DNA of 24,295 nt from a virus (IMGVR_UViG_3300042259_000129), one strand, 5' to 3'. Shown: positions 7,977 to 24,295, counted from the first letter of the stretch. Notes: generated by a model from the letters alone, not told the origin. Numbers and translations: made by a program.

Positions 7977-7978
7977 AG

Positions 7979-8638: not shown

Positions 8639-8642
8639 TTTG

Positions 8643-8671
8643 TTTACATTATAGGGAAATTTGAATAAATA
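8643..8671 (+). promoter_or_regulatory. Early-type promoter candidate GTTTACA-17-TAAATA
   Basis: Recurrent GTTTACA box directly after the gp42 stop; imperfect -10. Confidence 0.4.
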
Positions 8672-8700
8672 AATTATTACTTAAACACATTGGAGTTTTT

Positions 8701-9192
8701 ATGAATTTCTATTCATATATAAATGAGGGCCACGAACCCATGTTCAAATTTCCCTATAAGAATGTTAAGATTTTTTGGAATACCGGGAAAGCTGGTGAAG
8801 AACACACCATGGATTCCAGACTTGAGAGAATTGGTAAAACCAAAAAAGAAGTTTATGAATACATGAAGAAATTCATTAACATTCTTAAGAAGGAAAATAA
8901 AAATTATGGTGTGTATGCTATAATCTTCGATACCTTTAAAATGATTGCCACATATTCTAAGAATAGAATCTTCATTAATACATTTTTATCTAAGAATATG
9001 ACAGTATCTCATTATGATTTTCAACTTCAAATTCTGGAAGCATTAGAGAATTTTACAGGGGACAAATATGATGAAAATTCTTTTACTGTTGTAAAAATGT
9101 TAAGGGAATCTATTTGTGTTGAACGGGGTACTGACTATATTGACATTTATGGAATGCATAATTCAGTTTTTGAAGTAATTGAAATTGATTAA
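8701..9192 (+). CDS. Hypothetical protein (163 aa)
   Basis: GGAG RBS, own promoter candidate, TAA stop; no family recognised. Confidence 0.75.
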   Translation: MNFYSYINEGHEPMFKFPYKNVKIFWNTGKAGEEHTMDSRLERIGKTKKEVYEYMKKFINILKKENKNYGVYAIIFDTFKMIATYSKNRIFINTFLSKNMTVSHYDFQLQILEALENFTGDKYDENSFTVVKMLRESICVERGTDYIDIYGMHNSVFEVIEID

Positions 9193-9208
9193 CTAAATAA
9201 ATTACTTA

Positions 9209-9258
9209 TTTACATTAGGGTGGCAAATGATTAAAATAAAAATTATTTGCCACCCTAA
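9209..9258 (+). promoter_or_regulatory. TTTACA-17-TAAAAT promoter embedded in a 14-bp perfect inverted repeat
   Basis: TTTACA 9209-9214, TAAAAT 9232-9237; arms TTAGGGTGGCAAAT 9215-9228 and ATTTGCCACCCTAA 9245-9258. Confidence 0.6.
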
Positions 9259-9300
9259 ACATTTAAGAGGTTAGAATGACCTTCTATGTATTTTGGTTTT

Positions 9301-9308
9301 TATAAATA
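9301..9308 (+). promoter_or_regulatory. T4 late-promoter-like TATAAATA upstream of the homing endonuclease
   Basis: Exact consensus 20 nt before the ATG and just upstream of the AAGGAG RBS; the 8-mer is also common by chance in AT-rich DNA. Confidence 0.35.
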
Positions 9309-9327
9309 TATAGAAGGAGATCTAATA

Positions 9328-10311
9328 ATGAATAAAGTGAGACCCTATGTTTATAAAATTACACAAAAATTAACAGGTGAGTACTATTTTGGAGCCAAAT
9401 ATAGTAAATACAATTCAATACCAGAAAAATTTTGACAAAATTATTTCACATCATCTTTTTATATTAAAGAAATAATTGATGTTTATGGAAAAGATATTTT
9501 TATACCAGAAATATTATTTATTTTTGACGATGAAGATTTTAATATTGCTGTTAAGAACGCTTTATTAAAAGAAAGAGAATATATTGAACAACATATTAAT
9601 GATCCTTTATGTTTGAATATGAGATTATGACCTTGTAATCCTGATCCAAATAAAAAAAGACGTTGGGTAAACCCTAAAACAGGCGAATCCTCTTATACTT
9701 TAGGGGCTAAGAAAGGTGCATGAACAAGAAAATATACTATTTGTGAAAATGGATTAACAATACAAGAAAATTCAATTATAAAAACTAAAAAAACATATAA
9801 AGCAAATCCTAAAATTATAGAAAATAGAAAAGAGTTATGTAAAAAAATAATGTCAACAGTTGATGAAACTGGTTTAACTCGATATCAGAAAGCAGGTTTA
9901 AAAATAAAAGGAGATAGAAATCCCGCTTGCAGGCCAGAAGTTAAGAAAAAAATTTCTGATAGTGTTCGAAGGTGAGTAAAAGAAAATCCGGATATAATTA
10001 AAAAAAATACTGAGAAAATGATATTTAGTAGATCACAAATCCAAGAGGACGGTTTAAGTGCAAATCAAAAACATTCCTTATTTATGTTAGAAAATAATCC
10101 AGCATCAAATACAATATGAATAAACAACGGTTTAATAAATGTAAGACATCCAAAAGAAGAAATTGTGCCTGAAGGGTTTACATTGGGCCGAATTAAATTT
10201 AAACATAAGAAAGAAAAAATAATACGAATTTGCCCTTGATGTGGGAAAGAAGGAAGTGGTGGAAACATGACTAAATATCATTTTGATAATTGTAAAAATA
10301 AGGAAAAATAA
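9328..10311 (+). mobile_element. Freestanding GIY-YIG (Seg-like) homing endonuclease, 327 aa, six in-frame TGA=Trp
   Basis: YVYKIT...YYFG catalytic motif, F[W]QNYFTSS, NPA...VKKKIS (NUMOD3-like), TI[W]INNG, C-terminal CP[W]CGKEG...HFDNCK. TGA at 9433, 9628, 9721, 9973, 10117 and 10237; strong RBS; ends 7 nt before the topoisomerase ATG. Confidence 0.9.
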
Positions 10312-10318
10312 ACAATAT

Positions 10319-12124
10319 ATGAAAGAAGAAAAAATTGTTCATTTAAGCGATAGAGAACATGTGTTGAAGCGTGGAACTATGTGGATCGGGTCAGTTAAGA
10401 GAAACATTGTTGAAGAATATATTTTTGAAAATAAGTCTTTTGTTAAGAAGGAATTTGAATATGTTCCGGGGTTCATAACTGCTTTTAAAGAAATTATTTC
10501 AAATTCTCTAGATGAAAATTTAAAGACCAAAGGAGAATTTGCTAATATCATTAAGGTTGAGGTAAATTCAGATTTTATTTCTGTAAGAGATAATGGAAGA
10601 GGTATCCCTTCTGATAATGTTGAAGGACTCGATGTCCCTGCATCTGTTGCTGTTTTTACAAATCTCAAAACAGGAAGCAACTTCTCTGATGATAGCACTT
10701 CTATTGGCCAGAATGGTGTTGGAGCAAGTTTAACTCAAATTTTTAGTAAAAGGTTTTTTGTTGAAACATGTAACAATGGAAAGGTTACAAAACTTACATG
10801 TAAGAATAATGGTTCTGACATTAAGTATGATATTAAGGATAAAGAAGGTCATTATACTTTTGTAGAATATTGGCCTGATTTTGAAAGATTTTCAATGACT
10901 GAAATTGATGATATTCATAAAGATTATATCAGGAAAACCATTATAGATTATTCAATTTGCTTTCCCGATATCACATTTTATTTTAATGGTAAAAAGCTTG
11001 CTGGTAACTTTAAGAAGTATTGTGAGTATTATTCTTCTAATATAGAAACTTTCTCATATGAAAATATTGATATCTGTGTCTATCCAGGTGAATATGAACA
11101 GACTTCATTTGTAAATGGTTTAAACACAAAACGTGGTGGAAATCATGTAGATCTTATTGTGAACAAGATTACTTATACTCTTAGAGAACTTATTGCTAAA
11201 AAATATAAAGAGATTAAACCTCTAGATATTAAAAATAAAACATGTTATATTATTAACTTTAAGAATTTTACTGCACCCAGATTTGATTCCCAAACAAAAG
11301 AAAATCTCATTAACACTACCAAAGAAGTTCAAGAACTTATTAATGACATTGACTTTAGTGTTATTGCTAAGAAGCTTTATAAAAATGATGAAATGATGTT
11401 TCCTATTATTGAAACATTCAAAATTAAAGAAGAGCTCAAGAAAAGAAAAGATCTTAAATCAAAGGAATCTAAAGTTTCTAAGAAAAAGATTGCAAAGCTT
11501 ATTGATGCAAATACTACATCAAGAAAAGATACATTGCTTTTCCTTGCAGAAGGAAATTCCGCATTGAGTACATTTATTGAGGTTAGAAATCCTAATGAGG
11601 GTGGGTATCCACTTAGAGGTAAAGTAATTTCTCCTCAAGATACACCTTTGACTAAGCTTATGCAAAATGCTGAAATTGTAGATATTTTGGCTGCTTTGAA
11701 TCTTAAACTTTCAGATCCTTCTATTGATAATATGAATTTTGGAAAAGTTGTTATTATGTCAGATGCTGATGAAGATGGAAACTCTATTGCTTGTACTCTT
11801 ATAAATTTCTTTTATACATTTTGGCCAGATATGATCAAACAAGGGAAACTTTTAAAAGCTATTTCTCCTATTATTGTTGCTAAGAATCCAAAAACAAAAG
11901 AAATTAAAGAATTTTATAATTTGACAGATTATAAAAATGATCCTGATTTTGAAATCTTGGAAGTAACATCCCATAACAAAGGGCTCGGTTCCTTGGATAA
12001 AAAAGCATATAGGAAAATGCTAGATACATTAATTGAAGTTACTGAGGATGAATTTTCTAGACAAACTTTAGATATGGCCTTTGGTAAAGATTCCCAACCA
12101 AGAAAAGAATGGCTCCTAGCCTAG
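10319..12124 (+). CDS. gp39: Type IIA topoisomerase ATPase/TOPRIM subunit (T4 gp39+gp60 in one ORF)
   Basis: EIISNSLDE, DNGRGIP, GQNGVGA, EGNSA, PLRGK, DADEDG, KGLGS; start moved to the ATG at 10319. Confidence 0.95.
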   Translation: MKEEKIVHLSDREHVLKRGTMWIGSVKRNIVEEYIFENKSFVKKEFEYVPGFITAFKEIISNSLDENLKTKGEFANIIKVEVNSDFISVRDNGRGIPSDNVEGLDVPASVAVFTNLKTGSNFSDDSTSIGQNGVGASLTQIFSKRFFVETCNNGKVTKLTCKNNGSDIKYDIKDKEGHYTFVEYWPDFERFSMTEIDDIHKDYIRKTIIDYSICFPDITFYFNGKKLAGNFKKYCEYYSSNIETFSYENIDICVYPGEYEQTSFVNGLNTKRGGNHVDLIVNKITYTLRELIAKKYKEIKPLDIKNKTCYIINFKNFTAPRFDSQTKENLINTTKEVQELINDIDFSVIAKKLYKNDEMMFPIIETFKIKEELKKRKDLKSKESKVSKKKIAKLIDANTTSRKDTLLFLAEGNSALSTFIEVRNPNEGGYPLRGKVISPQDTPLTKLMQNAEIVDILAALNLKLSDPSIDNMNFGKVVIMSDADEDGNSIACTLINFFYTFWPDMIKQGKLLKAISPIIVAKNPKTKEIKEFYNLTDYKNDPDFEILEVTSHNKGLGSLDKKAYRKMLDTLIEVTEDEFSRQTLDMAFGKDSQPRKEWLLA

Positions 12125-12152
12125 TTTACATATTTAATTAAAAGGATATAAT
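12125..12152 (+). promoter_or_regulatory. Early-type promoter GTTTACA-16-TATAAT
   Basis: Consensus -10 ends 6 nt before the ATG at 12159. Confidence 0.5.
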
Positions 12153-12158
12153 TTAAAT

Positions 12159-13466
12159 ATGAAGAAAAATATTACTGAATTTATTAATGACGAATATAAA
12201 AGTTATTCTAAATATGTTCTTTATAATAGAGCTATTGGATCTGTTGCTGATGGATTTAAAGCTGTTCATAGAAAAATTTTCTTTCTTATTAAAGACCAAA
12301 AAGAATTTATCAAAACTGCATCTCTCGCAGGAAATTTAATTTCTAAAGCTGGATATAATCATGGTGACGCATCTGGAGGATCAGCTGCTTCCCTTATGGC
12401 TCAGTCTTTTGTTGGATCAAATAATGTTCCACTTCTAGATTCAAAGGGTTCTTTTGGTAATAGATTTATTAATGACCCTTCAGCAACAAGGTATACATAT
12501 GTAAAGGCAGCTAAAGTTCTTCCGTATCTTTTTAAGGACTTTGATCTATGCCCTGAAAATATTGATCCTGAAAATCCAGAACCTTTATATTATCTTCCTA
12601 TTGTTCCCACAATTCTACTTAATGGTATCAAAGGTATTGCTGTTGGATTTGCCTGTGATATTCCCTCTTTCAACATTCACGATCTGATTAATGAGTCTAT
12701 AAGGATTCTGTCCGGAGGTCTCTGCGAGGATGTGTACCCCTTCTATAAAGGATACAAAGGTGCACTTATTCAAAATGAAGAAGGAAATCTTGTTCAGACT
12801 GGCATTTTTAGAAAAATTAATGAAGGGAAAATTCATATTACCGAGGTACCTGTTTCCTATGATAGGGAAAAGTATATCTCATATCTCAATACCCTAATTG
12901 ATAAAAATCTAATTTCTAATTATACAGATAATTCTAAGGAAGAATGGGATATTGTAGTTTCCCTTCCTCGAAAATCTAAAGTTTGGGAAGACCCTATCAA
13001 ACACCTCAAACTCTACAATAATATCAACTATAATCTTACTTGTATTGATGAAAACGAGAACCTTAAGATTTTTAATTCTCCAAAAGAGATTATTGAATAT
13101 TTTGTAAAATTTAGAGTTGAATATTTTGAAAAGAGAAGACTAAAGAGGATCAAAGAGTTTAATGATCTTATTAATTTCAATATGGATAAGATTAAATTTA
13201 TTAAAACTGCTATGGAGTATGATTTTAAGAATAAAACAAAAGAAAAAATTTGGAAAGATTTTGTAAAAGATTTTGTTCCTGAAAATCTTGAAAAATTTCT
13301 TAAAATGAGTATCTCAAATATAAATAAGGATACTATTGAAGAATTAAAAGTAAAAATTAAAGGGTATCTTGAAGAAAGAAAATATTATCAAAGCACTACT
13401 AAGGAAGCTTTATATATTAAAGATCTTGAGGAACTTAAAACATTTTGTGAAAAGGAGAAAATGTAA
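12159..13466 (+). CDS. gp52: Type IIA topoisomerase DNA-cleavage subunit (T4 gp52/GyrA-like)
   Basis: DGFKAVHRK, YNHGDAS, catalytic ATRY, LLNGIKGIAVGFA. Confidence 0.95.
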   Translation: MKKNITEFINDEYKSYSKYVLYNRAIGSVADGFKAVHRKIFFLIKDQKEFIKTASLAGNLISKAGYNHGDASGGSAASLMAQSFVGSNNVPLLDSKGSFGNRFINDPSATRYTYVKAAKVLPYLFKDFDLCPENIDPENPEPLYYLPIVPTILLNGIKGIAVGFACDIPSFNIHDLINESIRILSGGLCEDVYPFYKGYKGALIQNEEGNLVQTGIFRKINEGKIHITEVPVSYDREKYISYLNTLIDKNLISNYTDNSKEEWDIVVSLPRKSKVWEDPIKHLKLYNNINYNLTCIDENENLKIFNSPKEIIEYFVKFRVEYFEKRRLKRIKEFNDLINFNMDKIKFIKTAMEYDFKNKTKEKIWKDFVKDFVPENLEKFLKMSISNINKDTIEELKVKIKGYLEERKYYQSTTKEALYIKDLEELKTFCEKEKM

Positions 13467-13702
13467 TGGGACTATGTAGAACTTGTCATGAATTTTTGCC
13501 CCCTGATTTTATGAATGAAGATAAGGAATGTGCTTTTTGTAAAAGGGATACTAATGTTCTAATTGGGGATGGGGACATTATGTACACGAAACAAGAAGTA
13601 GTATTAGATTACAAGGTTCTTCTTGGTGAACTAAAGGATGCTCAATCTATCAAAGATGCGTTTGTTCAAAATGTAGTAAGAAAGGAAGGATTGGATGGCT
13701 AA
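13466..13702 (+). CDS. Small zinc-finger protein
   Basis: CRTC...CAFC; TAATG coupling to gp52. Confidence 0.65.
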   Translation: MGLCRTCHEFLPPDFMNEDKECAFCKRDTNVLIGDGDIMYTKQEVVLDYKVLLGELKDAQSIKDAFVQNVVRKEGLDG

Positions 13703-14756
13703 GAGGATCAATGTAAAGCCCCAAGGCAGATTCATGCTTCACACTTGGGGTTGCGATACGGGCGGTTGCGGAATTATACGAACCTGAATTCCCAGTATCT
13801 TAATGTCTTCTTTTAGATACAAAGCAGCTTCCTTTATTTCAACATATGGATATTCCTATATCTCAGACCCTAAGTATTATGAGAATTTATTCTTTTGCAA
13901 GTTTCAGAGACCTGCAGAAGAAGCCCATGTCCAAATGATTAAAGACATTAAACATAGAATTCGGCAAGCACCTGTAATTGCAGATTATGATGATTTAGTA
14001 TTTGATATTCCAGAGATTAATATTGCGCACCAATATTACGAGGAAAGAAAAAAATATATTGAGGAAGCATTGACATTGGTCGAAGGGATCACTGTGTCTA
14101 CAGAATTTCTTCGAAATAAACTTCTCAAATATAATAAAAATATTTCTATTGTTCCAAATTATCTTCCTAAATTTTTGTGGAAGGAACCTGGTGCTATTGA
14201 TATTGTAAAGAATCATAAGAAGCCCAGAATTCTTTATCCAGGTTCAAGCACCCATTTTAATCCAAATGGAGAAGGGGGAGACTTTGCTGCAGAACTAATT
14301 GAATATATTAAAGAAACTTCTGAAAAATATGAATGGCACTTTATTGGGGGTCACCCGACTGAGCTTAAAGATAATAAGAATATTTTTATTCACCCTTGGC
14401 AATCATATTTTGAATATCCAGATTTTATTAAGAAGATTAACCCAAATTTAGCTATTGCTCCATTAGTAGTTAATGATTTTAATAAATCAAAATCCAATAT
14501 TAAATTTCAGGAGTATGTTGCTTCTGGTATATGTGGCATTTATCAGGATATTGAACCTTATAAGAATGCTACATTAAAAGCTAATTCTGCTGAAGATTTT
14601 ATTAAGTTAATTGAAGAACATATCTTAGATTTTAATAAACAATATGATGTATGGTTAAAAGATTACAATACTTTAAAGAATGATCTTTGGTTTGAGGGAA
14701 ATGAATTGAAATGGTTTAACAGACATCTGAAATTATTTAATAGGGAATTAAAGTAA
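13695..14756 (+). CDS. GT-B fold glycosyltransferase, 353 aa (in-frame TGA=Trp at 13785-13787)
   Basis: Reading through TGA adds MAKR...CDTGGCGIIRT[W]IP from an ATG overlapping the previous stop; body has FQR, DYDD, ITVSTEFL and IAPL..NDFNKSKSNIKFQEY..SG motifs of phage GT-B proteins. Confidence 0.8.
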
Positions 14757-15040
14757 TGCCTGGTATAGTTAGATTAGGAGACTATTGTTCTGGTCATGAT
14801 GGCTGACCCCCTAGACCCAATATAGAAGCAAGTGAAACAGTTTTTGTTAATGGATTAGGTGTTCATAGATTAGGAGATCAATGGGCCATCCATTGTAATG
14901 ATAGCTGTCACTCCGGAGTTGCATCCTCTTCTAGTCTAACTGTGTTTTGTAATTCTAAAGGGGTTTGTCGTGTTGGGGATTCTGTCAGTTGTGGTTCCAC
15001 CATGGCTGAGGGATCAACAGATACATTTGCAGGAGATTAA
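14756..15040 (+). CDS. PAAR-repeat spike-tip protein (T4 gp5.4-like), 94 aa (TGA=Trp at 14804-14806); absent from the ORF track
   Basis: MPGIVRLGDYCSGHDG[W]PPRP...VFVNG..VHRLGD..H...H...VF.N.KGVCRVGDSVSCG...EGS; GHxxWPP matches gp5.4 GHEAWPP; TAATG coupling. Confidence 0.92.
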
Positions 15041-15044
15041 AATA

Positions 15045-15332
15045 ATGACCAGAAAAGAGTTTAATGAGCTTTCAACGATTGAAAGAACATCCCTTAATAA
15101 GAAATTAGATAAAATTAATTTAGCCCTTTTAGATATTATTGATAGTATTGTTGAAATTGATGAGGACACAATAGGAATCAAGCTTACCAAGAATCTTGTA
15201 GTTTACAATGAAGGCAGCTGTGTTAGTATTAATAAAGGATATAATATTCAGGTGGCTAAAGAAATTCACCTGAATCCTTCTAAAACTGTAGATGAAAGTG
15301 TTACAAAAATGTTAGATTTCAATAAGGAGTAA
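15045..15332 (+). CDS. Hypothetical protein (95 aa)
   Basis: ATG at 15045 after GGAG; the longer track start overlaps the PAAR gene. Confidence 0.7.
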   Translation: MTRKEFNELSTIERTSLNKKLDKINLALLDIIDSIVEIDEDTIGIKLTKNLVVYNEGSCVSINKGYNIQVAKEIHLNPSKTVDESVTKMLDFNKE

Positions 15333-15335
15333 TTT

Positions 15336-16226
15336 GTGAGTCAAGAAATTTGGTGTTTCAAGTATGCACCACAATCATTAGATGAGATGATTCTCTCTGA
15401 TGATAAGAAAGAAGTTCTTAAAAAGGTTATTAAGGAATGTCCTAATGTCCTTCTAGCAGGGAAACCTGGCACAGGAAAGGGCACCTTTATGGATATTTTC
15501 CTTAAGGAAACTGGTTATGATTTCCTTAAGCTAAATATGTCTGATGAGAATTCTGTAGATACTGTTAGAGATACAATTAAAACGTTTGCAACCTCTTTAG
15601 GTTTCACTAATAAGAAAATCGTTTATGGAAATGAATTTGATGCTGTAAGTTTACAGGGTCAATCAGCAATTCGCGATTTACTAGAATCAGTTCAGAAGAA
15701 CTGTAGATTTTTCTTTCTAGCTAACTATCCTCAAAAGATTATCGATCCAATTAAATCTAGATGTCAAACTATTACACTAAATGAGCCGCCAAAAGATCAA
15801 CTTCTTAAATTTTGTTTTAAGATTCTTAAAGCTGAGAATATTGAAGTCAAAAATAAGTCTGGTGTTGTTGAGATCATCAAAGCTCACTACCCAGATATAA
15901 GACAAATTGTTAATACTCTACAACTTAATTGTGTAAATGGTGTTTTCGATACTGTAAAGATTTCAACTACTTCTGATGTGTTTGAAAATATCTTTACTTA
16001 CATGAAAGAAGCTGATATTGAAAACATTAGAAAAACTCTACGATCTGAAGGTGTTGACTATCCAGCATTGTTTAACTATCTTTATGAAAAAGCCCCAGAA
16101 GTTAAGTCGCCAGGAGATTTTGTAATTGCTTTAGGTGAGTATTTATATAGGGATGCTTTTGTTGCTATTAAGGAAATCAACTTTATGGCATTTTATTTTG
16201 AAATGATGAAGAAGGGAGTATTATAA
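15336..16226 (+). CDS. gp44: Clamp-loader AAA+ subunit (T4 gp44/RFC-like)
   Basis: WCFKYAP, GKPGTGK, NEFD, SRC motif, YPDIRQIVN. Confidence 0.93.
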   Translation: MSQEIWCFKYAPQSLDEMILSDDKKEVLKKVIKECPNVLLAGKPGTGKGTFMDIFLKETGYDFLKLNMSDENSVDTVRDTIKTFATSLGFTNKKIVYGNEFDAVSLQGQSAIRDLLESVQKNCRFFFLANYPQKIIDPIKSRCQTITLNEPPKDQLLKFCFKILKAENIEVKNKSGVVEIIKAHYPDIRQIVNTLQLNCVNGVFDTVKISTTSDVFENIFTYMKEADIENIRKTLRSEGVDYPALFNYLYEKAPEVKSPGDFVIALGEYLYRDAFVAIKEINFMAFYFEMMKKGVL

Positions 16227-16465
16227 TGATTTATTCATTAAATATGTATTCAAGAGAGCTATTAGAAGAAGCATATGATTCTCTTGGAAAAATTTATTTA
16301 AATTGTATCCCACATAAAAACGAACATATTACATATGAAAAGGATATTTATCTCGTGGAAGAGATTTTTTATAAACTATCAGGACAATCTCATGAGTCCG
16401 AAATTAATTTATATTGTTTATATGTAGGAAAAATAAATTCAACAAAAGAATTAATGAGAAAGTAA
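16226..16465 (+). CDS. Hypothetical protein (79 aa)
   Basis: TAATG overlaps on both sides. Confidence 0.7.
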   Translation: MIYSLNMYSRELLEEAYDSLGKIYLNCIPHKNEHITYEKDIYLVEEIFYKLSGQSHESEINLYCLYVGKINSTKELMRK

Positions 16466-16800
16466 TGGAAAAACAAACTATTTTTGATTTTCTCAATTCA
16501 ATCAATAACAAGAAGAAAATTGAGATCAATGAGAAGGATTTTTCTGGGTATATGGTAAGCTTATGGTTTAGTCATGCCCAAGATTGTATTGATGTAGTTA
16601 ACAGGATCAATCCCTATATCTTTAATACTCCTTCCAAAGCAATGTATGAATATTATTTTGATAAAATTTCAAAGAAGAAACGATTTATCAAATTTACGAA
16701 AAAAGAAAAAGATGAAAAAGCAAATGCAGAAAAGGAAACTTTTAAAACAATACACAATCTTTCTAAAAAGGAGATGAAATTATATAAAGATTTTTTCTAG
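16465..16800 (+). CDS. gp62: Clamp-loader small subunit (T4 gp62-like)
   Basis: FDFLNSIN...KKRFIKF pattern and position after gp44; ATG at 16465 by TAATG coupling. Confidence 0.7.
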   Translation: MEKQTIFDFLNSINNKKKIEINEKDFSGYMVSLWFSHAQDCIDVVNRINPYIFNTPSKAMYEYYFDKISKKKRFIKFTKKEKDEKANAEKETFKTIHNLSKKEMKLYKDFF

Positions 16801-16804
16801 TTTG

Positions 16805-16833
16805 TTTACATATAATATAGTTGAATATAATGT
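16805..16833 (+). promoter_or_regulatory. Early-type promoter GTTTACA-17-TAATGT
   Basis: Intergenic, upstream of the AAGGAG RBS of the 16859 gene. Confidence 0.5.
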
Positions 16834-16858
16834 TAATAAAAAATGTTAAGGAGATCCT

Positions 16859-17614
16859 ATGATTGTTAATGTAAAGAAGTTTAATAATTTTCTACGAAAG
16901 GCAACATTGAATTTTTCAATTAATTCTTTCAGTTGTGATATTAGTCCAGAGCGTGTTGTTTCTCGAATGATCACAAAATCTAATGATGCTATTGCGTGTC
17001 TGGATTTTGAAAATGACATTTTTAAGGAAAATAAGGAAAATCTTTCTTTTAATTTTATTGATCCAAATAGCTCTATTGTCCCTTATCTTAATCTTGTTGA
17101 TTCTGAGGAAGCTGAACTTATTGCAAGGGATGAAAAACTTATTCTTAAGAATGGTAAGCAGAAGTCAAATATTTTCTTTTGTGAAGAAATGATTCCTTCT
17201 AAGTTTGGCGCATCTGAACCCAAAGTGCAGTTTTCCCCATTTATCACAATTGATGTTAATGAAGAATTTCTAGAAACTTTCAACAAAATCAAAAAAATTG
17301 GAAACAAGTTCGGAAAAATCTATTTTACTGTAATAAATAATATTCTACAAATGGAGACCACCGATAAGAAAAACAAGTTCTCTAATGGTCTTTCCTTTGA
17401 CATTGCAGAAAATGTAAATTCTAAAGATATTTCAATTTGTTTTGATTTTGGTAATATGAATAATATGTTTGCTGTTCTAGATGATGATGTTTCTTACAAA
17501 TTAGATTTTATTTATGTTAAAGAAAAGGATATGGGTCTAATGACGTGCAAACGAGCTAACCCAAATTCAGAAAGCATTGAAAGTTACTATTTGACATCTA
17601 AGATGGAGGTTTAA
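16859..17614 (+). CDS. Probable sliding clamp (T4 gp45-like)
   Basis: 251 aa, predicted alternating beta/alpha pattern, adjacent to clamp-loader genes; assignment rests mostly on size and context. Confidence 0.55.
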   Translation: MIVNVKKFNNFLRKATLNFSINSFSCDISPERVVSRMITKSNDAIACLDFENDIFKENKENLSFNFIDPNSSIVPYLNLVDSEEAELIARDEKLILKNGKQKSNIFFCEEMIPSKFGASEPKVQFSPFITIDVNEEFLETFNKIKKIGNKFGKIYFTVINNILQMETTDKKNKFSNGLSFDIAENVNSKDISICFDFGNMNNMFAVLDDDVSYKLDFIYVKEKDMGLMTCKRANPNSESIESYYLTSKMEV

Positions 17615-17869
17615 GTGAAACTAATTAGAATTGAGTATATTTTAAACAATAACAATTGGAAGTGTAATGTTATTGCTAAAGATACTAAAGATGGAGTAAG
17701 TTTTTTAGAAAAATATCTGAGGGCACCCTTTAGTATTACATCAACTGAAGAAGTGTGTGATATTCATGGAATCAGTGATACTATGAAGGATAATTTTTTA
17801 AAGACTGTTGAAGCAAAGGTTGAAACAAAGAGTGAACCTAAGTCAAAGTTGGGAAGGCCAAAGAAATAA
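17615..17869 (+). CDS. Hypothetical protein with a basic C-terminal GRPKK tail
   Basis: GTG after GGAGG; last gene of the + strand block. Confidence 0.7.
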   Translation: MKLIRIEYILNNNNWKCNVIAKDTKDGVSFLEKYLRAPFSITSTEEVCDIHGISDTMKDNFLKTVEAKVETKSEPKSKLGRPKK

Positions 17870-17871
17870 GT

Positions 17872-17896
17872 AGGGGGTCATATGACCCCCTTTTTT
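17872..17896 (+). terminator. Rho-independent terminator between the convergent blocks
   Basis: Perfect 20-bp palindrome AGGGGGTCATATGACCCCCT followed by a T run. Confidence 0.85.
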
Positions 17897-17903
17897 ATAA
17901 TTC

Positions 17904-18461
17904 TTAGTTAACATTCTCAAGAGAGCATCAAAAGATAGTCTCTGCCATGACAGCCACTTCTACCCACTCACCAGTTTCCTCATCGAGGACCTCCTTCGTC
18001 TCGCCAGTATCAACAAGATAGGCTTCTTCAGGCAACACCATCTTCACATGGCTAAAGTAGAAACCCATAAAGTCACCAAAAAGAGCCGCACGGCCCTCAA
18101 GGATGTCTTCGTAGGGCACACCAGCATCGAGGTCACTCTGAATAAGCGCAGCAGCTACAGGGTGCATCGTACTCAGATCAGGCTCAATCCCCATCATCAG
18201 CGCACCAACAACAGGATCGGTAGCGAGGCCGTCAACTTCCCACGAAGAGATGTCGAAGGCTTCAGCGTGTTTAGCCTTAGCGTCTGCAAACTCTCCCTTG
18301 TAGAAGTGGATGCAGCGAAGTTTGTAGGTTGTGTCGTCCACGGTGAACACACCGCAATCCTGGGAGTTCTCCCAATGGATACCGTAAAGATACCCAGAGG
18401 GAGAATCTACACTCACTTTATAGTAGGCCGCAAAGCGCGGTCCTCGGTCTATGAAAGGCAT
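17904..18461 (-). CDS. Fibre-associated hypothetical protein (177 aa to the TGA at 17928; 185 aa to the TAA at 17904 if TGA=Trp)
   Basis: TAATG-coupled to the fibre gene; about 53% G+C on line 18121-18180; acidic; a chaperone or assembly role is only a positional guess. Confidence 0.75.
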
Positions 18462-21400
18462 TATGCCACCATCCTTGTTTCGATTTCGGTGTCGGACATG
18501 CCGCCCTTGTTGCTTACCATGACTCTGCGGAACCAGATTGGAACAGTGTTACCATAAGCGAGTCGCAGGTGGGTTAAGGTGTTAAAGCTACCATCGAAGG
18601 ATATCCAACTACTCCATTGGATAGCAGAGTTGATGCCGATGCGTTTATATCCAACTCGGAATTGTGTACCGTCAGCATTAGTTTGGATAAGTTTGATATG
18701 GCGTTCATAACGGTTCCACGAGAATCCTGCGACGTTTGTACCATTTGTCCCATCCCAATCTTTGACAATAACAGGAGTTGTATAAATATTGTCATACCCA
18801 TGTCCAAGAAAGCTGTTCCATGTAGAACCCGTGTTCGGGGCGAGGATGTTGGCCCACGTTGACATACCCAACCCAGCCAAATCCCCGCTCCCAACACCCA
18901 TCGTCACTTCAGCCGCCACCGTGCATGTAGCAGGTTTGAGTTTCTGGACGGAGATATTGTCAATGATTACTGTATTTCCAGTTGATCCATATAGATTACC
19001 AACACGTACATAACAAGAGGCTGACGTTGGCGTAAAACTAAATGTAATAATACCAGAGCCTGTCTGCGATATATTTTTATACTCACCACCACTTAATGTT
19101 GAACCCAGGCGAATATTAAGACTTCCAGGGTTTCCGCCAAGAAGTTCCACTGAGAAGATATATGTCTTCCCAACTTCTAGTGTTAATAGCTGATATACAT
19201 ATCCAGAATACGCATCACTATTTGTTATTGTTAACAGTCCATCGGATACAGTTTGGACGCCATAGTTGGTCACCGTCCACCCACTCACATCACTATCAAA
19301 CGTCCCATTCGTAACCAACTCCACCCCATCAGTTTCACTCTTCTCAAAGCACTGCATGAGAGGAGAGGAGAGGCGTTGGACGGAGATGTTGTCCCATTCA
19401 GAGTAGAGTCCATCACCCATGCCATAAAGTGTAATATAAAGGACTGACGACTCTGCTACAAAGTCATGTACATTAACTCCATCACTAGTAATTGACGCTA
19501 TTTGTGAACTACCAGCAGAATAGTACCCTAGTCTAATTTCTGGCGAAGCGGCTGTTGGAATCGTTACGCCTGTGAACCTATACTTTGCACCAACAATAAG
19601 GCTCACTGTCGTACTTGCAGCATATGCCCCATCACCAGCGTTACCAGACACATGAAGTTTACCATCAACTACACTTAGTATACCATAACTTACAGAGGTC
19701 CACCCATCAGTTGTACTATCGAAAGTACCATTATACACCAACTCCACACCATCAGGCTCTTCGGCCATATCGAAGTAGATACCGTTGTTGCCAGAGGTTC
19801 CAGCAGCGGAGGCTACGGTTGTTCCTGGGGGGACGTAGGGCATGGGGGCTGATGTGGCGGTGAGTTGAGGACATGTTATATAACAATAGAAGCCACCAGC
19901 ACCACCAGAAGAGTTAGGATAAATATAGGTCCGCAAAGAATTACCTACTGTAAATCCACTGATCGTACAGGATAATTCATACCAGCCATCATCTAATTCA
20001 ACCAAACCAAAAGTTCCACTGCCAGATTTAATGGTTATATTAAGGGTGTCCCAATTAAATCCTATTTGAACAACATTAGAGCGAAGTGTTGCGTCCCAAA
20101 ATAGCAGGTCTGTATTAAATGCAGTGCCTCTTTTGAGTTTAACACTAAATGTTGCGTTACTAGATGGAAAGGTGGCCACTGTCTGAAGACTGTATGCTCC
20201 AGTTGATAGGGATTCTGCCTTGAAAACAGGTGAGTTCCCAAACCTAAGGTTCGTAAGCTCATAATCTACTAAACCACCACCCCATAATGTTGAGGCAAGG
20301 TTTTCGCTACCAACCGCAAGCAAGTTCCCATAACTCGGCCCACACCACACACCCTTATCACCATGAATAGCAGGCACGTAGTCTGTTAGTTCGTTAACAG
20401 TGGTGAGCGGGGGTACGTACGGGGCGGTAAAAACTGTTGTTAGCTGTGGGTTTTGAATGCTAATTCCAGAGACACCATCCCCGAGATAATTTCTATTTGA
20501 TGCCCAATTGGTATCCTTTGCAACTCTAACATCAAGAACAATACTGGTTGCAGATGTAGCTACTCCACTTACATATACGGTAATTGATCCATCATTATTC
20601 CTTATAGACCTGAAGACAGGTGAGCCAGAGACGCTAGCCAATGCGCCAGTAATTAAATCCACAGACACAAAGTAAACGAGGCCGCCGCCATTCAAGCCAA
20701 CATACGCAAAATTTCTACCATTCGGTTTAATAGTAATACTGCCAGTATAACTCACGCCAATAACGGCTGTGATACCACTTGTAACATAATGAGCTTCGGC
20801 TAGTACTGATTCGGTAACTTTGTACCAATCCCCATCAGTGGTTATCGTCGCCCCTGTTTTGCTCCAAGTTGTAATGTCATTAGAGGTAATGTGGTTCGTA
20901 TACCCAGGCCCACTCCACCAAAGCCGCCCATCACCATTAAGGTCAGTAGGTTCATTCAGCCCAACATAGCTCCCATCTTCAGCATACATCCTGTCACTGT
21001 AAGACCAGTTAGGATCGGGACCAACAGCACTACGCTGCCCACCGTCTTCTACGCGATAGAGGAGCTTAACATCATCGAACCGTGTAACCTTCCCATACAG
21101 ACTATCGCTCTGGGGAATTTCAATCCACCACAATCCAATGTTCAAATATACTTTCTTAGGCTCATACGCATCCACAATACAGAAAGTGCCCTGCTGGTAG
21201 TCACCAACATTGGGAAGGTTCTGAGAACGAATGACAGTGTAGGGCATCCAATCTCTATCAATCTTACCCTGACTGTCTGCACGCACAACCTTGTCGGCGG
21301 CGGGGGAGGTAGAGGTTTCAGACTGATTGACAGCGTTGATCTGCGTAGTTGTTACGCCATGAGGATTAGCTGTGCTCGCAATGTGAGACTGAATGTTAGA

Positions 21401-21736
21401 GTTTGCAGGTTCAGCACCAACCTGAGAGTAGGTAACGCCATGAGGATTAGCTGTGCTCGCAATGTGAGACTGAATGTTAGAGTTTGCAGGTTCAGCACCA
21501 ACCTGAGAGTAGGTAACGCCATGCGGGTTACTGGTGTTTGCTATATGACTTTCAAAATCTGATATATCAGAAATATCTATACCCGCTGCTTGTCACCCAG
21601 TATCTGTTCCATAATATAAATGATTTATATCCTCGACATAAATCATTCGACCTTCATCAGTGGATTGTCATGTAGGAAGTGTAGACACCTTTTGGTGAAT
21701 AAACTTACCCTTCATTTCTATACCGTGAAATTTCAT
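18461..21736 (-). CDS. Long tail fibre / receptor-binding protein, 1091 aa (TGA=Trp at 21668-21670 and 21593-21595)
   Basis: True start ATG 21736 after GAGGA, in frame with track ORF 18461..21286; HIxxxxNPH repeats, two ELVxNGTFD...W...DNISVQ beta-sandwich modules, Gly/Ser/Thr-rich. Confidence 0.85.
21354..21523. repeat. Perfect 81-bp tandem duplication (two units plus 8 bp) encoding HGVTYSQVGAEPANSNIQSHIASTANP
   Basis: ACGCCATG recurs at 21354, 21435 and 21516 with identical intervening sequence. Confidence 0.95.
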
Positions 21737-21847
21737 CTATTTGTCCTCAAAAAGAAAGAAGTTAGAATTTCATTTTCGTGTTAACTTTTTAGGTTAAAAA
21801 TAACAGGACTTGGGGATCCCTCGAAAATAAAATTTTGATTATAAATT

Positions 21848-21855
21848 TATTTATA
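21848..21855 (-). promoter_or_regulatory. T4 late-promoter-like TATAAATA in the gap upstream of the fibre gene
   Basis: Exact consensus, intergenic, correctly oriented; chance occurrence is plausible. Confidence 0.3.
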
Positions 21856-21859
21856 AAAA

Positions 21860-22636
21860 TTAATACTTAATACAGGGAAGCAATGCAATGTTTCTTGGTC
21901 TTGTTTCAGTTCCTCCCGTGTATCCAATACAACCTGGATCACTTGCTGCTCTTTCTGCATCATCAGCATACAATCCCGGGGCATACAACTGAGGACTGTT
22001 CGAACCTCTATCATTGCCATATTGTGTATGTCTATGACTTTTTAGTTCATCACTTTGAAAACTTCCAAAGCTTCGCCCAGAATCAATTCCTCTACCAGCA
22101 TCTCAACACCTAATAAATTCGCCTCTAAGATCAGGAACCCCGAATGTTGTAGTTCCATTTCCCGCCCCAAATGTTGTTCCAATTGCAGAAAATAATGAAG
22201 AATAAGTAGTTCTTGAAACAATAGAGCCGTTACAAATTAAATATCCTACCGGAGCAGTATTTCTTGCAAAATAAAGAATGGCTCCAGGGGGGACTAACTG
22301 ATTTTGAATTAAATCAACAGTATCATGAGGGTCATTTGTATCCGCTACATGGGCATTAAATGTAGATAAAGGTGTTGCTCCAATTTGAACAGAGGTCACT
22401 TGATGAGGATTATTAAAATCATTAATGTGATTATTAATTTCATCAATAGCTGTGTCTACATCATCTGAAATAAGTAGTCGTACTCACTCAGTTTGAGATC
22501 CGTAATAAACAACACCACCCATTTCTGAGCTTATATAAACATATCGACCAATATCAGAGTCAACATCAAATTCTGGAAGAGCATCAAGTTTTTCCAGAAT
22601 CATCGGTCCATCCATTTCTATTCCATAAAATTTCAT
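21860..22636 (-). CDS. Tail collar-domain fibre protein, 258 aa (TGA=Trp at 22484-22486 and 22103-22105)
   Basis: PPGAILYFA...APVGYLICNG...LFSAIGTTFG...PDLRGEFIRC[W]DAGRGIDSGR...GGTETRPRNIALLPCIKY is the canonical collar domain; ATG after GAGGT. Confidence 0.93.
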
Positions 22637-22646
22637 TTCTTACCTC

Positions 22647-23684
22647 TTAAAAATAGCCAAAGATTTTAACAACAGCATTTGGATTTGATCCAGCTTTAAT
22701 CTTAACTTCATTTTCATCAATACTTTCAATTTCTGTTAATGTTAAAACTTTCTTTACATCCGTATCCCAACATGTTACAGAAGGGTATTCCTGATTCAAA
22801 TTGTGAACAATATTGAAAGAATATACTCCGCCACCTTCATCAGTCCATGCTGTAATAGTTTGGGTAAATGTAGAATTTGAAAATCTTTCATGAATATCAT
22901 AAATTGTTTTATTGCTTACAATTCTATTATAAACAACATCATCTGAGCTGGGATCTACCTCATATAGTCCATGAGCATAGCCTGAGGGAGCTGCAGATAG
23001 AGACATTGTTTCAAAAATAAAATTTCTATGATCTTCTCAACCTTTAGCAATTGTATTATTTAAAATCTTATTAAAGGTTGGATCCTCATTATAAGCATTA
23101 ACAGGTTGAAGATTGTGAGGATTTGTAGGATCAGGAGAAATCAATATTGAATTAAATACAGCATTTTTATGCGTTTGTCATCCATTTGCAAGAAAATTAT
23201 TAACAACTTTATTATATGTTTCATCGGTCTGTGATAAATCAACATTTGTTAAACCATGAATAGGAAGTCCATTATAAACGACATCATGGTTAGTATGCGT
23301 ATAAAAAATATTTGCTAAAGCATTACTAATAAGTTTATTTTTATATGTCGAAGATGTATCAAATTCATCTACACCCTCAACAAGAGGAAAAACATCAATA
23401 TAATCAATAATGCCGGAAGAAATGCCATCTCTTTCCCAAGCTATTTTAAATTTAGTACCCCTGGAATATCCAAGAATTGTATCTTCTTCATCTGCAACTC
23501 AAAATTCAAAATAACCATTGGATGTTGTAGTTAATTGGGGCGCCACATTGAGTGATGTTGTTAAATCCTCTGAAGTAAAAATATTAGCAGGTGTACTTGT
23601 TCCAGCTAAAAATACAGAAACACTAGCACCATTAATAGGCTGCCCTTCCTGATTTAAAAGAAATTGTCAAAAGTGATATCTCAT
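22647..23684 (-). CDS. Virion structural protein, 345 aa, with head-binding-like N-terminus and four internal repeats (TGA=Trp at 23667, 23499, 23178, 23037)
   Basis: GQPINGASVSVFLAGT...NGYFEF[W] N-terminus, repeated VD...YNK..N..A.G[W]..H units, C-terminal W...HNL module; ATG after AAGGA. Confidence 0.8.
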
Positions 23685-24295
23685 TTATAACTTCCTTATA
23701 GATACTCTATAGAATATTGTCATTGTAAAATTTTGAGATTTATAAATGTTTGAACAAAGAGTTTCAAATAAAACTTCATCCAAATCTGTCAATATCTCAA
23801 TTTTATTTATAGTCATTAGAACTTCTTTTGGCACATCTAATCTAAAATATATAAAATTTTCATCATTTCACATTTCAGTAATTAGACTTTCATAAGTCAA
23901 ACTTGTTAAATTATTTGACAATTTAAACTTTGTAAGTTTAAGAATATCTGTAAAAATAGGTGAACCTATTGCTACTAATACAGCATATCCGGAAATTTCC
24001 CTATCAAATTCAATAATAGTATTATTTTCATCTAATAGAGTTATATTCTTAGGATATATTTTTTTATTTTCATCATTATATATATTTACTAAAACACCCG
24101 AATACCCTAAATTGTGGTTTATATTTCAAACATTTGAAGTTGTATTATTATGAAGATATGTATATCTATCTATAATAATTTGTCCTGTTTTAATACTAGT
24201 ACTTACTTTATTTACTTCATCTAATTTTATATATGATGGAATAAACTCTTGTTTTTCTAAATCAAATATTTGTGTATAAACTTCTTTTACATTTA
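23685..24295 (-). CDS. C-terminal part of a virion structural protein (starts outside the window; TGA=Trp at 24126 and 23868)
   Basis: 203 codons open apart from two TGA; V[W]NINHNLG motif; its TAA abuts the next ATG. Confidence 0.8.

Follow-up and report, generated by a model that had tools for sequence, protein, structure and literature searches.

A tail fibre locus of a TGA-recoded T4-like phage that combines a native anchor with sequence shared with standard-code T7-like phages

The window analysed here, a 24,295-nucleotide stretch of viral DNA (IMGVR_UViG_3300042259_000129), belongs to an uncultured T4-like phage with ~30% G+C and with TGA decoded as Trp, chiefly in its virion genes. The leftward tail-gene block of this phage is closed by a hypervariable host-range slot, in which the native start of a fibre gene was kept and the distal part together with the next gene was very probably exchanged, by recombination, for T7-like standard-code DNA. 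The first-pass annotation had proposed the recent capture of a host-range module from a code-11 donor. Import from a standard-code pool is borne out by near-identical blocks; the picture of one clean capture is not, as the locus is a composite mosaic with junctions at ~21530-21544 and 21241. Module swapping across phages is already well known; in this case the exchanged host-recognition parts cross a genetic-code boundary.

Composition and architecture of the fibre locus

The features of the locus are listed below by window coordinates.
17872..17891, no strand assigned: bidirectional terminator hairpin at the right edge of the variable slot, separating the cassette from the convergent clamp-module genes
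17904..18461, minus strand: accessory gene, 185 codons under code 4; ATGA overlap with the fibre stop; TAA stop at 17904-17906
17928-17930, minus strand: in-frame TGA of the accessory gene (codon 178), aligned with CGT (Arg) in contigs L003 and L004
18461-21736, minus strand: fibre open reading frame, 1091 codons under code 4; 2 TGA (codons 23 and 48), 24 TGG
18461..21241, minus strand: distal fibre, residues 166-1091, mosaic; all Trp codons TGG
20322-21241, 19707-19871, 18900-19390 and 18461-18562, minus strand: distal blocks resembling T7-like fibres, 88-100% identity
19872-20321, 19391-19706 and 18563-18899, minus strand: hypervariable distal blocks
21242..21529, minus strand: GC-rich NPH-repeat shaft and linker, codons ~69-165; G+C 50%, GC3 0.46
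21354-21530, minus strand: 81-nt tandem array in the shaft, 2.2 copies; one copy more in contig L020
21530..21544, minus strand: junction J1, where AT-rich native codons give way to GC-rich ones, within the first H-x-x-x-x-NPH-x-VT motif
21545..21736, minus strand: native N-terminal anchor, codons 1-64 (MKFHGIEM...); G+C 34%, GC3 0.22
21668-21670 (codon 23) and 21593-21595 (codon 48), minus strand: TGA-Trp codons of the anchor
21737..21859, minus strand: native AT-rich leader; G+C 25-27%; GAGGA ribosome-binding site; one TATAAATA
21860..22636, minus strand: native fibre with a collar domain, paralogous and with an anchor of the same type; 2 TGA, 0 TGG, low GC3; internal control for a native fibre

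The long reading frames of the window are open under code 4 only. Reading of TGA as Trp also agrees with homologues: in an alignment, anchor codons 23 and 48 are TGG-Trp in most of the homologues L009-L017, and with the peptide MRYHFWQF, which has TGA at W6 in the window, as search pattern, two relatives matched from query residues 1-2. Of the 15 Trp codons of virion genes 11 are TGA, whereas replication genes have few or none, depending on which start codons are chosen. The first-pass figure of 11 TGA among 15 Trp codons in native structural sequence was reproduced by per-gene counts (11 TGA versus 4 TGG), with TGA/TGG counts of 1/1 in the PAAR gene, 2/0 in the anchor and 8/3 in three tail genes. 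Recounting of the fibre likewise located TGA at codons 23 and 48 only, as claimed, all 24 later Trp codons being TGG, as are three in the next gene. In Fisher tests the cassette (1 TGA/27 TGG) differed from the tail genes plus anchor (10/3) at p = 2.6e-6 and from all native reading frames plus anchor (24/46) at p = 0.0015; the anchor differed from the remaining fibre (2/0 versus 0/24) at p = 0.003.

The G+C content rises from ~30% to 45-50% across 17938-21541, and 500-nt windows ranged from 43 to 51% over 18001-21500 versus 24-37% in windows before 18001. The 60-nt counts given in the first-pass annotation (18/60 at 21601-21660 and 31/60 at 21481-21540) were exact, and its breakpoint near 21540 agrees with a maximum likelihood change point at codon 65 (21541; 2-lnL support interval codons 41-77). 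The right-hand change point obtained by maximum likelihood was 17938. GC3 amounted to 0.42 in the cassette, whereas native tail genes had 0.15 and plus-strand genes 0.22. Relative synonymous codon usage (RSCU) of the cassette correlated at 0.77 with T7-like non-fibre genes versus 0.50 with native tail genes, although this correlation is a weak discriminator (0.77 versus 0.50-0.63).

High G+C could also arise in a native gene from a Gly/Ala/Thr-rich fibre composition with no transfer at all, as distal fibre parts are often compositionally odd and GC2 of the fibre gene is high (0.47). We give this explanation next to no credence: GC3 is raised too, the cassettes of relatives differ, and it is ruled out by the 96-100% nucleotide identity to unrelated T7-like contigs described below.

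Identity to the 81-nt repeat unit begins at 21530, within J1, and the native collar fibre carries the same H-x-x-x-x-NPH-x-VT motif in the same position behind its anchor. Searches with the NPH shaft (21242-21529) returned generic repeat-motif matches only, and no donor was found for it. The TATAAATA of the leader (21848-21855) is a candidate T4-type late promoter; its count of 7 in the window versus 4.7 expected is not above chance. The distal fibre contains two to three beta-sandwich domains, each of which opens with GVELVxNGxFD. Pfam CBM_4_9 gave no match on the window's own fibre protein and a sub-threshold one in the T7-like contig L006 (E = 0.01, 16.7 bits versus a cut-off of 25.9). A structure model of the distal fibre reached a mean pLDDT of 50 overall, with two domains mostly at 60-77. 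With Foldseek these two domains matched tandem CBM22 at E = 1e-9, and folds similar to it, yet with TM scores of 0.25-0.32 and from a low-confidence model, so that the predicted domains may be called weakly CBM-like. Indirectly, from the hypervariable blocks and the CBM-like beta-sandwiches, the distal fibre would be the receptor-binding part.

The accessory gene has 51% G+C, a GC3 of 0.53 and three TGG Trp codons, and its product shares 88% amino-acid identity with that of the gene downstream of the L003 fibre. The left end of the cassette had been set at 17928, where code 11 places the stop of this gene. We revise this: homologues extend eight codons past 17928, and the end is therefore most likely the TAA at 17904-17906. 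The TGA at codon 178 occupies an Arg/Lys position in homologues and is followed by CSLE, conserved in most of 23 aligned members; since this family-conserved C-terminal motif comes after the TGA, the codon is most likely read as Trp. Differences in the accessory gene 3′ of this TGA are mostly synonymous. Profile searches of Pfam and PHROG found no match for the accessory family, and its confident model (pLDDT 89) had no Foldseek match in PDB or BFVD, the best VIA Z being just 3.5. For three copies of the fibre C-terminal domain together with the accessory protein, complex prediction gave 'no answer' (score 0.00), which is neutral on binding. The terminator hairpin that bounds the slot occurs at the same place in relatives, with different stem sequences.

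Sequence shared with T7-like phages

Blocks of fibre residues 166-1091 and of the downstream gene were found to be 96-100% nucleotide-identical to podovirus contigs (L003-L008), and uninterrupted matches of 325 and 269 nt are shared between the cassette and T7-like fibre loci. Comparison of the window with these contigs detected no other DNA similarity outside the fibre cassette. At the protein level the L003 fibre matches residues 166-1091 with an overall identity of 71%. By gene content and order, L003-L008 can be classed as T7-like, the yardsticks being a fibre N-domain of gp17 type, a transglycosylase among the internal virion proteins, and portal, gp18 and terminase arranged as in T7. The donor contigs encode internal virion proteins, portal, T7-type terminase and gp18, and PHROG matches were to internal virion proteins, terminase and head-tail adaptor. 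The fibres of L006 and L007 match the T7 fibre N-domain PF03906 (E = 2e-35 to 4e-36), the N-domain of L003 and L004 differs (phrog_17462), and PF22530 and PF11123 were matched in L035. The T7-like loci use the standard code: each has 56-60 TGG, in-frame TGA is absent and one stop codon is TGA. The claimed code-11 donor is thus supported by contigs that encode Trp by TGG only and share blocks up to 100% identical with the cassette.

The L006-type accessory protein was also found in runs SRR35175269 and SRR35174905, both of which contain contigs of the recoded phage too, and at least one T7-like type co-occurs with the recoded phage in the same sequencing runs. A metagenome scan with the fibre recovered anchor homologues only and no additional donors, and a search for contigs encoding the L003 accessory protein had no match.

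The direction of transfer, judged from composition and from where the module is more diversified rather than from a rooted tree, would be from the T7-like pool into the recoded phage. A reverse or symmetric transfer, in which the source is the recoded T4-like lineage or an unsampled phage or prophage of ~50% G+C and the T7-like phages are co-recipients of a shared tip pool, is in our estimate quite unlikely. It would fit the G+C of the module, whose fibre region at 45-52% also exceeds the T7-like genome average (41-44%), the NPH shaft, which lacks a T7-like counterpart, the ongoing shuffling of blocks, and the fact that TGA-free blocks are readable under either code. Nevertheless, three T7-like lineages that have diverged from one another (L003/4/5, L006 and L007/8; 45-71% amino-acid identity) carry the distal module, and the close relatives of the recoded phage carry unrelated cassettes. 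Moreover, the cassette lies 15-20 points above the G+C of the recipient and has 27 TGG and 1 TGA, compared to 3 TGG and 8 TGA in native tail genes. As the cassette (45-50%) is also richer in G+C than the T7-like average, the ultimate source may be a third party. Window-specific substitutions polarised against L003 and L004 comprised 28 GC>AT versus 20 AT>GC; with no AT-ward bias the transfer is not dated by amelioration.

Import into the recoded phage very probably proceeded as follows. The phage retained its own leader and an anchor of ~50-65 residues (MKFHGIEM...), by which the fibre is presumably attached to the baseplate. The foreign part consists of the NPH-repeat shaft, a distal part of ~925 residues with the CBM-like beta-sandwich domains and the translationally coupled accessory gene, drawn from the gene pool of standard-code T7-like podoviruses in the same samples. 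One crossover took place in the short H-x4-NPH-x-VT motif common to native and foreign fibres and a second where the distal domain begins (21241), the shared breakpoint of the T7-like relatives; a sharp break at this position is indeed common to every one of them. The TGA within the accessory gene arose later, and a standard-code phage would now truncate the accessory product.

Independent assemblies and alternative cassettes

Chimeric assembly, in which a GC-rich T7-like stretch was spliced into a T4-like contig at shared sequence, was named in the first-pass annotation as a finding that would overturn its proposal. The setting is one in which assemblers err, since donor and recipient have blocks 97-100% identical and occur in the same runs, and Logan contigs of the recoded phage end within the fibre gene. 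However, L020, an independent 89-kb JGI contig, contains the locus in full, including both junctions. Its native flank is 100% identical to the window over 21354-24295, and over 7928-21533 the only mismatches are five SNPs in the cassette (20630-20788) and the repeat array, which holds one extra 81-nt repeat. The right junction was recovered in contigs of five Logan runs. The sequence around both outer junctions is found in the T4-like phage alone, and these junctions were reproduced in independent assemblies, in L020 with another repeat number. The reading frame is maintained across the fusion at a shared motif, giving a complete anchor-shaft-tip architecture, the accessory TGA ahead of a conserved motif fits residence in a genome that reads TGA as Trp, and a relative has the same design of anchor plus foreign cassette in different DNA. 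Taken together, a chimera appears very improbable. An exact 41-nt pattern spanning J1 had no match in IMG/VR, and a search for contigs encoding a 98-aa collar-fibre fragment found none. The exact 177-aa code-11 accessory product occurs on 12 contigs.

Two further contigs, L021 and L024, were 100% identical to the window over 7928-18550 and then continued with a block 98% identical to the T7-like L006. Two fibre alleles are thus present on one backbone, and the cassette is still being reshuffled. The consensus of shared blocks may be mixed with co-occurring T7-like reads. Contigs that end inside the fibre, where two unrelated phages have identical blocks, represent a recurring assembly hazard.

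The comparison of relatives suggested in the first-pass annotation showed alternative cassettes behind the same anchor. Relatives L031-L034 share ~77% nucleotide identity with the window on the side of the replication module and 69-73% on the opposite side, across the tail genes, and possess the same anchor with TGA at W48. In these relatives the anchor is fused to an unrelated fibre with 56-60% G+C and seven Trp codons, all TGG, and is followed by a different accessory gene. In L029 yet another GC-rich gene fills the slot. Anchor homologues in nine further low-GC contigs (L009-L017) each have a different C-terminal module, and L019 represents a fully native recoded example with TGA throughout. 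A long vertical history of the whole gene, the other outcome that would have overturned the proposal, is contradicted by relatives whose clamp protein is 76-84% identical and which are syntenic on both flanks but contain different cassettes.

Genetic code, known systems and implications

The recoded phage could read the module straight away, since both codes assign TGG to Trp and TAA is the stop of the imported genes. Conversely, the anchor contains two TGA codons, and the whole chimeric fibre is therefore translatable only if TGA is decoded as Trp. The 'recoding control' ascribed to the anchor in the first-pass annotation would follow from this by logic, as translational gating, provided that the host uses the standard code, as the distribution of TGA may suggest: skews of TGA to particular gene classes have been tied to standard-code hosts (Borges et al., bioRxiv 10.1101/2021.08.26.457843). 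The one-way flow likewise rests on logic together with a single new in-frame TGA.

Alternatively, the import may be real and the TGA codons of the anchor without regulatory meaning, because the host reads TGA as Trp or decoding persists throughout infection, the anchor being kept for its fit to the baseplate only. Structural need would fully account for anchor retention, and the same anchor with TGG is found on many fibres of standard-code contigs. TGA at anchor Trp positions in four anchors (both paralogues of the window and of L031) does not go beyond the tail-gene background of 73%. A tRNA search of the 24-kb window detected no suppressor tRNA and no tRNA at all; suppressor tRNAs have been detected in just 35% of code-4 genomes (Borges et al., bioRxiv 10.1101/2021.08.26.457843). 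Against this explanation, the concentration of TGA in virion genes is the pattern of standard-code hosts described in that work, and T7-like phages with near-identical tips lack any TGA-Trp, which points to a shared standard-code host. We regard an anchor without regulatory meaning as possible, if on balance doubtful.

No GenBank phage matched the window at the DNA level, and the fibre protein gave weak matches only. The phage resembles 'Agate', a gut phage lineage of ~127 kb with TGA-to-Trp recoding (code 4), for which a role of recoding in blocking premature late-gene translation has been proposed (Borges et al., bioRxiv 10.1101/2021.08.26.457843). Both are large virulent phages whose TGA codons cluster in the structural genes and in a homing endonuclease that sits within an early gene, the replication genes being almost free of TGA; the resemblance is one of size (longest contig 137.5 kb) and of the TGA-rich homing endonuclease, not of placement in a tree. 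The preprint describes gradual TGA accumulation among close relatives, whereas the window points to import of standard-code modules; the terms 'horizontal' and 'recombination' are absent from its main text (Borges et al., bioRxiv 10.1101/2021.08.26.457843).

The closest parallel in kind is the host-recognition module of tail fibre and cognate chaperone shared by the Alteromonas schitovirus A5 and myovirus V22 (Gonzalez-Serrano et al. 2023, PMC10579305). There, as here, the distal fibre and the adjacent downstream gene travel together between a podovirus-type and a myovirus-type phage that keep their own virion-attachment ends. In our case the partners differ in genetic code and by ~12-15 points in G+C, the identity is far higher, with blocks up to 100%, and the downstream gene belongs to an uncharacterised family for which a chaperone role is not demonstrated. 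The donors L006 and L007 have the T7 gp17-type build, in which the PF03906 N-domain is followed by an Ala-rich coiled-coil shaft and then by the distal module of the window; the window fibre is devoid of this N-domain and shaft and has its own anchor and the NPH-repeat shaft instead.

Fibre loci of T-even and P2/Mu-type phages are reportedly mosaic, with recombination at short motifs, the 'His boxes', swapping adhesin specificity, in work ascribed to Haggard-Ljungquist in 1992 and Tetart in 1998. In the window, too, the proximal part is conserved and distal parts are swapped, with breakpoints in short conserved motifs and with conserved linkers that separate hypervariable blocks. It differs in its motif, which is H-x4-NPH-x-VT and not GxHxH, and in the exchange partner, a T7-like fibre with a gp17-type N-domain and coiled-coil shaft.

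A further step would be to regard the fibre slot as a standing capture site, in which the conserved TGA-bearing anchor of this clade gates the translation of standard-code modules received from co-infecting phages and subsequent gain of TGA, such as that at accessory codon 178, blocks back-flow, a ratchet that makes recoded phages net sinks of host-range modules. We consider this rather unlikely; if true, shared tips would expose the standard-code hosts of recoded phages. Independently of such a ratchet, the near-identical nucleotides show directly that a difference in genetic code does not shut a recoded phage off from the standard-code host-range gene pool of the same community. Imported sequence begins without TGA-Trp, so that gain of TGA could be tracked over time as a natural marker for the spread of recoding. 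Since phages with a common fibre tip probably share a host, such tips may also lead to the hosts of recoded phages.

Composition and Trp codons of the fibre gene

T4-type replication proteins encoded in the window comprise the large and medium subunits of topoisomerase II, the clamp loader gp44/gp62 and the sliding clamp; besides these, there are genes for a PAAR protein and for the tail, one of which encodes a collar-domain fibre. TGA serves as stop in none of the native ORFs of the window, in line with a T4-like phage that reads TGA as Trp. A neighbouring 345-aa protein begins MRYHFWQF with W6 as TGA, and this peptide, used as search pattern, retrieved two relatives with the match starting at query residues 1-2. 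The homing-endonuclease gene (phrog_314; 9286-10311, plus strand) directly upstream of the gene for the large subunit of topoisomerase II contains six TGA and one TGG, and the relative L031 lacks a counterpart to 9281-10325; the endonuclease gene resembles the "preferentially recoded intron endonuclease" of the Agate phages (Borges et al., bioRxiv 10.1101/2021.08.26.457843). Upstream of the PAAR gene, 13695-14756 (plus strand) is read under code 4 as a protein of 353 aa with a single TGA close to the start, and for L027, L030 and L031 code 11 gives homologues of this same length; this TGA therefore seems to be a gain in the lineage of the window, the relatives being without it.

The fibre gene and its downstream neighbour were delimited as follows.

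18461-21736, minus strand: fibre ORF, 1091 codons under code 4
17904-18461, minus strand: accessory ORF downstream of the fibre, 185 codons under code 4, overlapping the fibre stop

Within the fibre ORF (code 4), TGA occurs at codons 23 and 48 only, both in the N-terminal anchor, and TGG 24 times; in most anchor homologues of other contigs the two TGA codons pair with TGG-encoded Trp. In 500-nt windows, G+C content was 43-51% over 18001-21500 compared to 24-37% before 18001, with steps at ~17900-17950 on one side and ~21500-21600 on the other (100-nt resolution). Maximum likelihood placed the in-fibre change point at codon 65 (coordinate 21541; support, codons 41-77) and the right-hand one at 17938. 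GC3 was 0.42 in the cassette, comprising the GC-rich distal fibre and the accessory gene, compared to 0.15 for the three native genes of the tail and 0.22 for genes on the plus strand. Trp codons (TGA/TGG) amounted to 10/3 in tail genes plus anchor versus 1/27 in the cassette (Fisher p = 2.6e-6). The first-pass annotation had described two code signatures in this gene, which is borne out by the composition step and the Trp-codon split; its G+C counts of 18/60 and 31/60 were exact on recount, and its 11 TGA among 15 Trp codons of native structural sequence were reproduced (TGA/TGG: PAAR 1/1, anchor 2/0, tail genes 8/3).

T7-like fibres and the composite graft

Scanning IMG/VR with the fibre yielded six contigs (L003-L008), which match residues 166-1091 and are T7-like podoviruses. 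They have a G+C content of 41-44% and code for internal virion proteins with transglycosylase, a T7-type terminase, a gp18-like small terminase and a portal, and in L006 and L007 the fibre has an N-terminal domain of the T7 gp17 type (PF03906, E about 1e-35) followed by an Ala-rich coiled-coil shaft. These contigs use the standard code: there are 56-60 TGG per locus, no in-frame TGA was found with ORFs as long as 1721 codons, and only one TGA stop is seen. That single TGA stop ends an HNH endonuclease gene inside the terminase, the large subunit being encoded by two ORFs with this gene between them (L003:7397-9909, L004:7073-9585).

The fibre is 71% identical overall to the L003 fibre at the protein level, distributed as a mosaic in which residues 166-470, 630-670, 790-950 and 1000-1091 show 90-99% identity, with blocks of ~25% between them. 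Conserved blocks are 96-100% identical in DNA to T7-like contigs, and the longest exact run measures 325 nt for L003 and 269 nt for L004. The accessory protein is 88% identical to the product of the gene after the L003 fibre, and the two L003 genes overlap by 4 nt, as in the window. Capture from a code-11 donor, as previously claimed, is supported by this near-identity to standard-code T7-like fibres of the same samples.

Fibre codons 1-64 are of native composition. Codons 65-165 (G+C 50%, GC3 0.46) form a shaft of three H-x4-NPH-x-VT repeats plus linker, two of the repeats being an exact 81-nt tandem. This shaft has no counterpart in T7-like fibres, and elsewhere only generic motif matches were obtained. 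In the neighbouring native collar fibre an anchor of the same type precedes this motif, which is written there in AT-rich codons. In the fibre's first NPH motif the first half is AT-rich and identity to the foreign repeat runs from 21530 on, which places the first of two junctions in a motif that occurs in native and foreign fibres alike.

21530-21544, minus strand: junction J1, composition switch inside the NPH motif common to native and foreign fibres
21241, minus strand: junction J2, the exact position at which similarity ends in all T7-like relatives

A junction within a shared motif would be the expected product of homology-assisted recombination. In T-even and P2-type phages, the exchange of distal fibre parts at short motifs is a classical finding. 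A native leader and anchor are joined to foreign distal parts; the proposed graft is supported, as a composite, ongoing mosaic with the junctions J1 and J2.

PHROG tail-fibre families matched the repeat region of the fibre only. The distal fibre contains two to three domains starting GVELVxNGxFD, and a CBM_4_9 match in L006 was sub-threshold. The C-terminal 441 residues of the L003 fibre were modelled with low confidence (mean pLDDT 50, mostly 60-77 in two beta-sandwiches), and this model matched tandem CBM22 and other CBM-like domains with E about 1e-9 and low TM. Together, model and hypervariable blocks fit, without proving, a glycan-binding receptor-recognition module.

Fibre alleles and cassettes in independent contigs

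A chimeric assembly, raised as an objection in the first-pass annotation, was rejected, as the junctions recur in independent assemblies. L020, a separate 89-kb contig (JGI sample 3300042258), spans the locus completely; in the native flank it is 100% identical to window 21354-24295, and over 7928-21533 its mismatches are confined to five cassette SNPs (20630-20788) and repeat-array differences. The right junction was present in contigs of five Logan runs in the order clamp gene, 84-aa gene, terminator, accessory gene and fibre. The 81-nt (27-aa) NPH repeat array comprises 2.2 copies in the window (21354-21530) and one additional repeat in L020 (L020:6848-7108); since copy number differs between otherwise identical phage contigs, shaft length is polymorphic in the population.

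Two other contigs of the recoded phage, L021 and L024, are 100% identical to window 7928-18550, accessory gene included; divergence then begins inside the fibre, and the next block is 98% identical to T7-like L006 rather than L003. Because of this switch, at least two fibre alleles exist on one backbone, each akin to a different T7-like fibre. The L006-type accessory protein was found in runs SRR35175269 and SRR35174905, which also contain recoded-phage contigs, and donors and recipient come from IMG samples with adjacent numbers. Logan contigs of the recoded phage stop inside the fibre gene (L021:1-1302, L024:4457-5914). These breaks are likely caused by 97-100% identical blocks common to co-occurring T7-like phages, and such shared blocks represent a systematic assembly hazard for host-range genes.

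Relatives found via the TGA-free clamp protein showed 89, 84, 76, 70 and 62% identity. L031 (clamp 76%) is syntenic with the window, with ~77% nucleotide identity over 10326-17771 and 69-73% across the tail genes; of window 17771-21830, only 35 nt at the start of the fibre gene can be aligned. Its syntenic fibre starts with the same anchor, including TGA at W48, and beyond it has a G+C content of 56-60% and seven TGG; this unrelated Gly-rich protein of 362 aa is followed by a different GC-rich gene (162 aa). The relatives thus do not share the whole gene, the case named earlier against recent capture: the L031 cassette, an alternative behind the same anchor of the kind the annotation had proposed to look for, is common to L032-L034, and L029 (clamp 84%) holds yet another. 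Nine further low-GC contigs contain the anchor followed by differing C-terminal modules, and L019 is a fully native recoded example (TGA at 3/3 Trp codons, G+C 24-32% throughout). Within this clade, the content of the fibre slot has been replaced repeatedly.

Small ORFs lie downstream of the relatives' GC-rich fibre cassette (L031:8850-9450, minus strand; also L032-L034, L038 and L039). One has a lipoprotein-type signal (MKRIL...LPGC) and, by analogy to T5 Llp, may encode a superinfection-exclusion lipoprotein beside the receptor-binding gene.

The accessory gene and the code boundary

In the window and the T7-like donor loci examined (L003:4886-5440 in L003), the accessory gene lies directly downstream of a fibre gene. 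Its small family has 28 representatives at 50% identity, most of 154-194 aa. The protein showed no known family or fold; its AlphaFold model is confident (pLDDT 89) with no PDB or viral fold match (best Z 3.5), and by this model it is a candidate for a new fibre-associated fold.

Under code 11 the gene ends at TGA 17928-17930, where the cassette had been delimited; the gene most likely ends at 17904. The corresponding codon is CGT (Arg) in L003 and L004, whose proteins continue C-S-F-E-N-V-N and stop at the position of the window's TAA. After the TGA the window keeps C-S-L-E-N-V-N, three of four nucleotide differences from L003 being synonymous, and the family C-terminus is N-I-x-[R/K]-C-S-L-E (23 members aligned). 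Since the upstream fibre gene itself needs TGA as Trp, we read this TGA as a sense codon. The 177-aa code-11 product was found on 12 contigs, all of which carry the TGA by construction of this look-up. The codon is either later than the import or arrived with an older resident 3′ end, considered because identity to L003 is only 58-74% over the last ~180 nt. No other sign of the import acquiring the recipient's code has been found so far, and with this codon a standard-code phage would make a truncated protein; general AT-ward amelioration of the cassette was not found (28 GC>AT versus 20 AT>GC).

We infer that transfer went from T7-like to recoded phage, because three T7-like lineages hold diversified forms of the module and the recipient's relatives hold none, and because cassette G+C lies 15-20 points above the recipient's. 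The earlier interpretation of a foreign cassette on a recoded anchor is supported, with the corrections that the cassette is a composite mosaic and that its last gene most likely ends at 17904 instead of 17928. The host probably uses the standard code, as TGA use is partitioned by gene class, like in the recoded phages of Borges et al., whose TGA codons cluster in late genes, and as phages sharing the fibre tip use no TGA for Trp. Because its codons 23 and 48 are TGA, the chimeric fibre would be made only when TGA is decoded. This putative gating may be a by-product and not a selected feature, since the structural role of the anchor is sufficient to explain its retention.

Alteromonas phages A5 and V22 likewise exchanged a fibre and its downstream gene across podovirus and myovirus types (PMC10579305), and the process itself is ordinary. 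No description of standard-code modules imported into a recoded phage was found in the literature searched on recoded phages, and the words "horizontal" and "recombination" are absent from the main text of the Borges et al. preprint. What is new is that a code boundary is crossed, that one gene shows two code signatures and that this design recurs in a relative.
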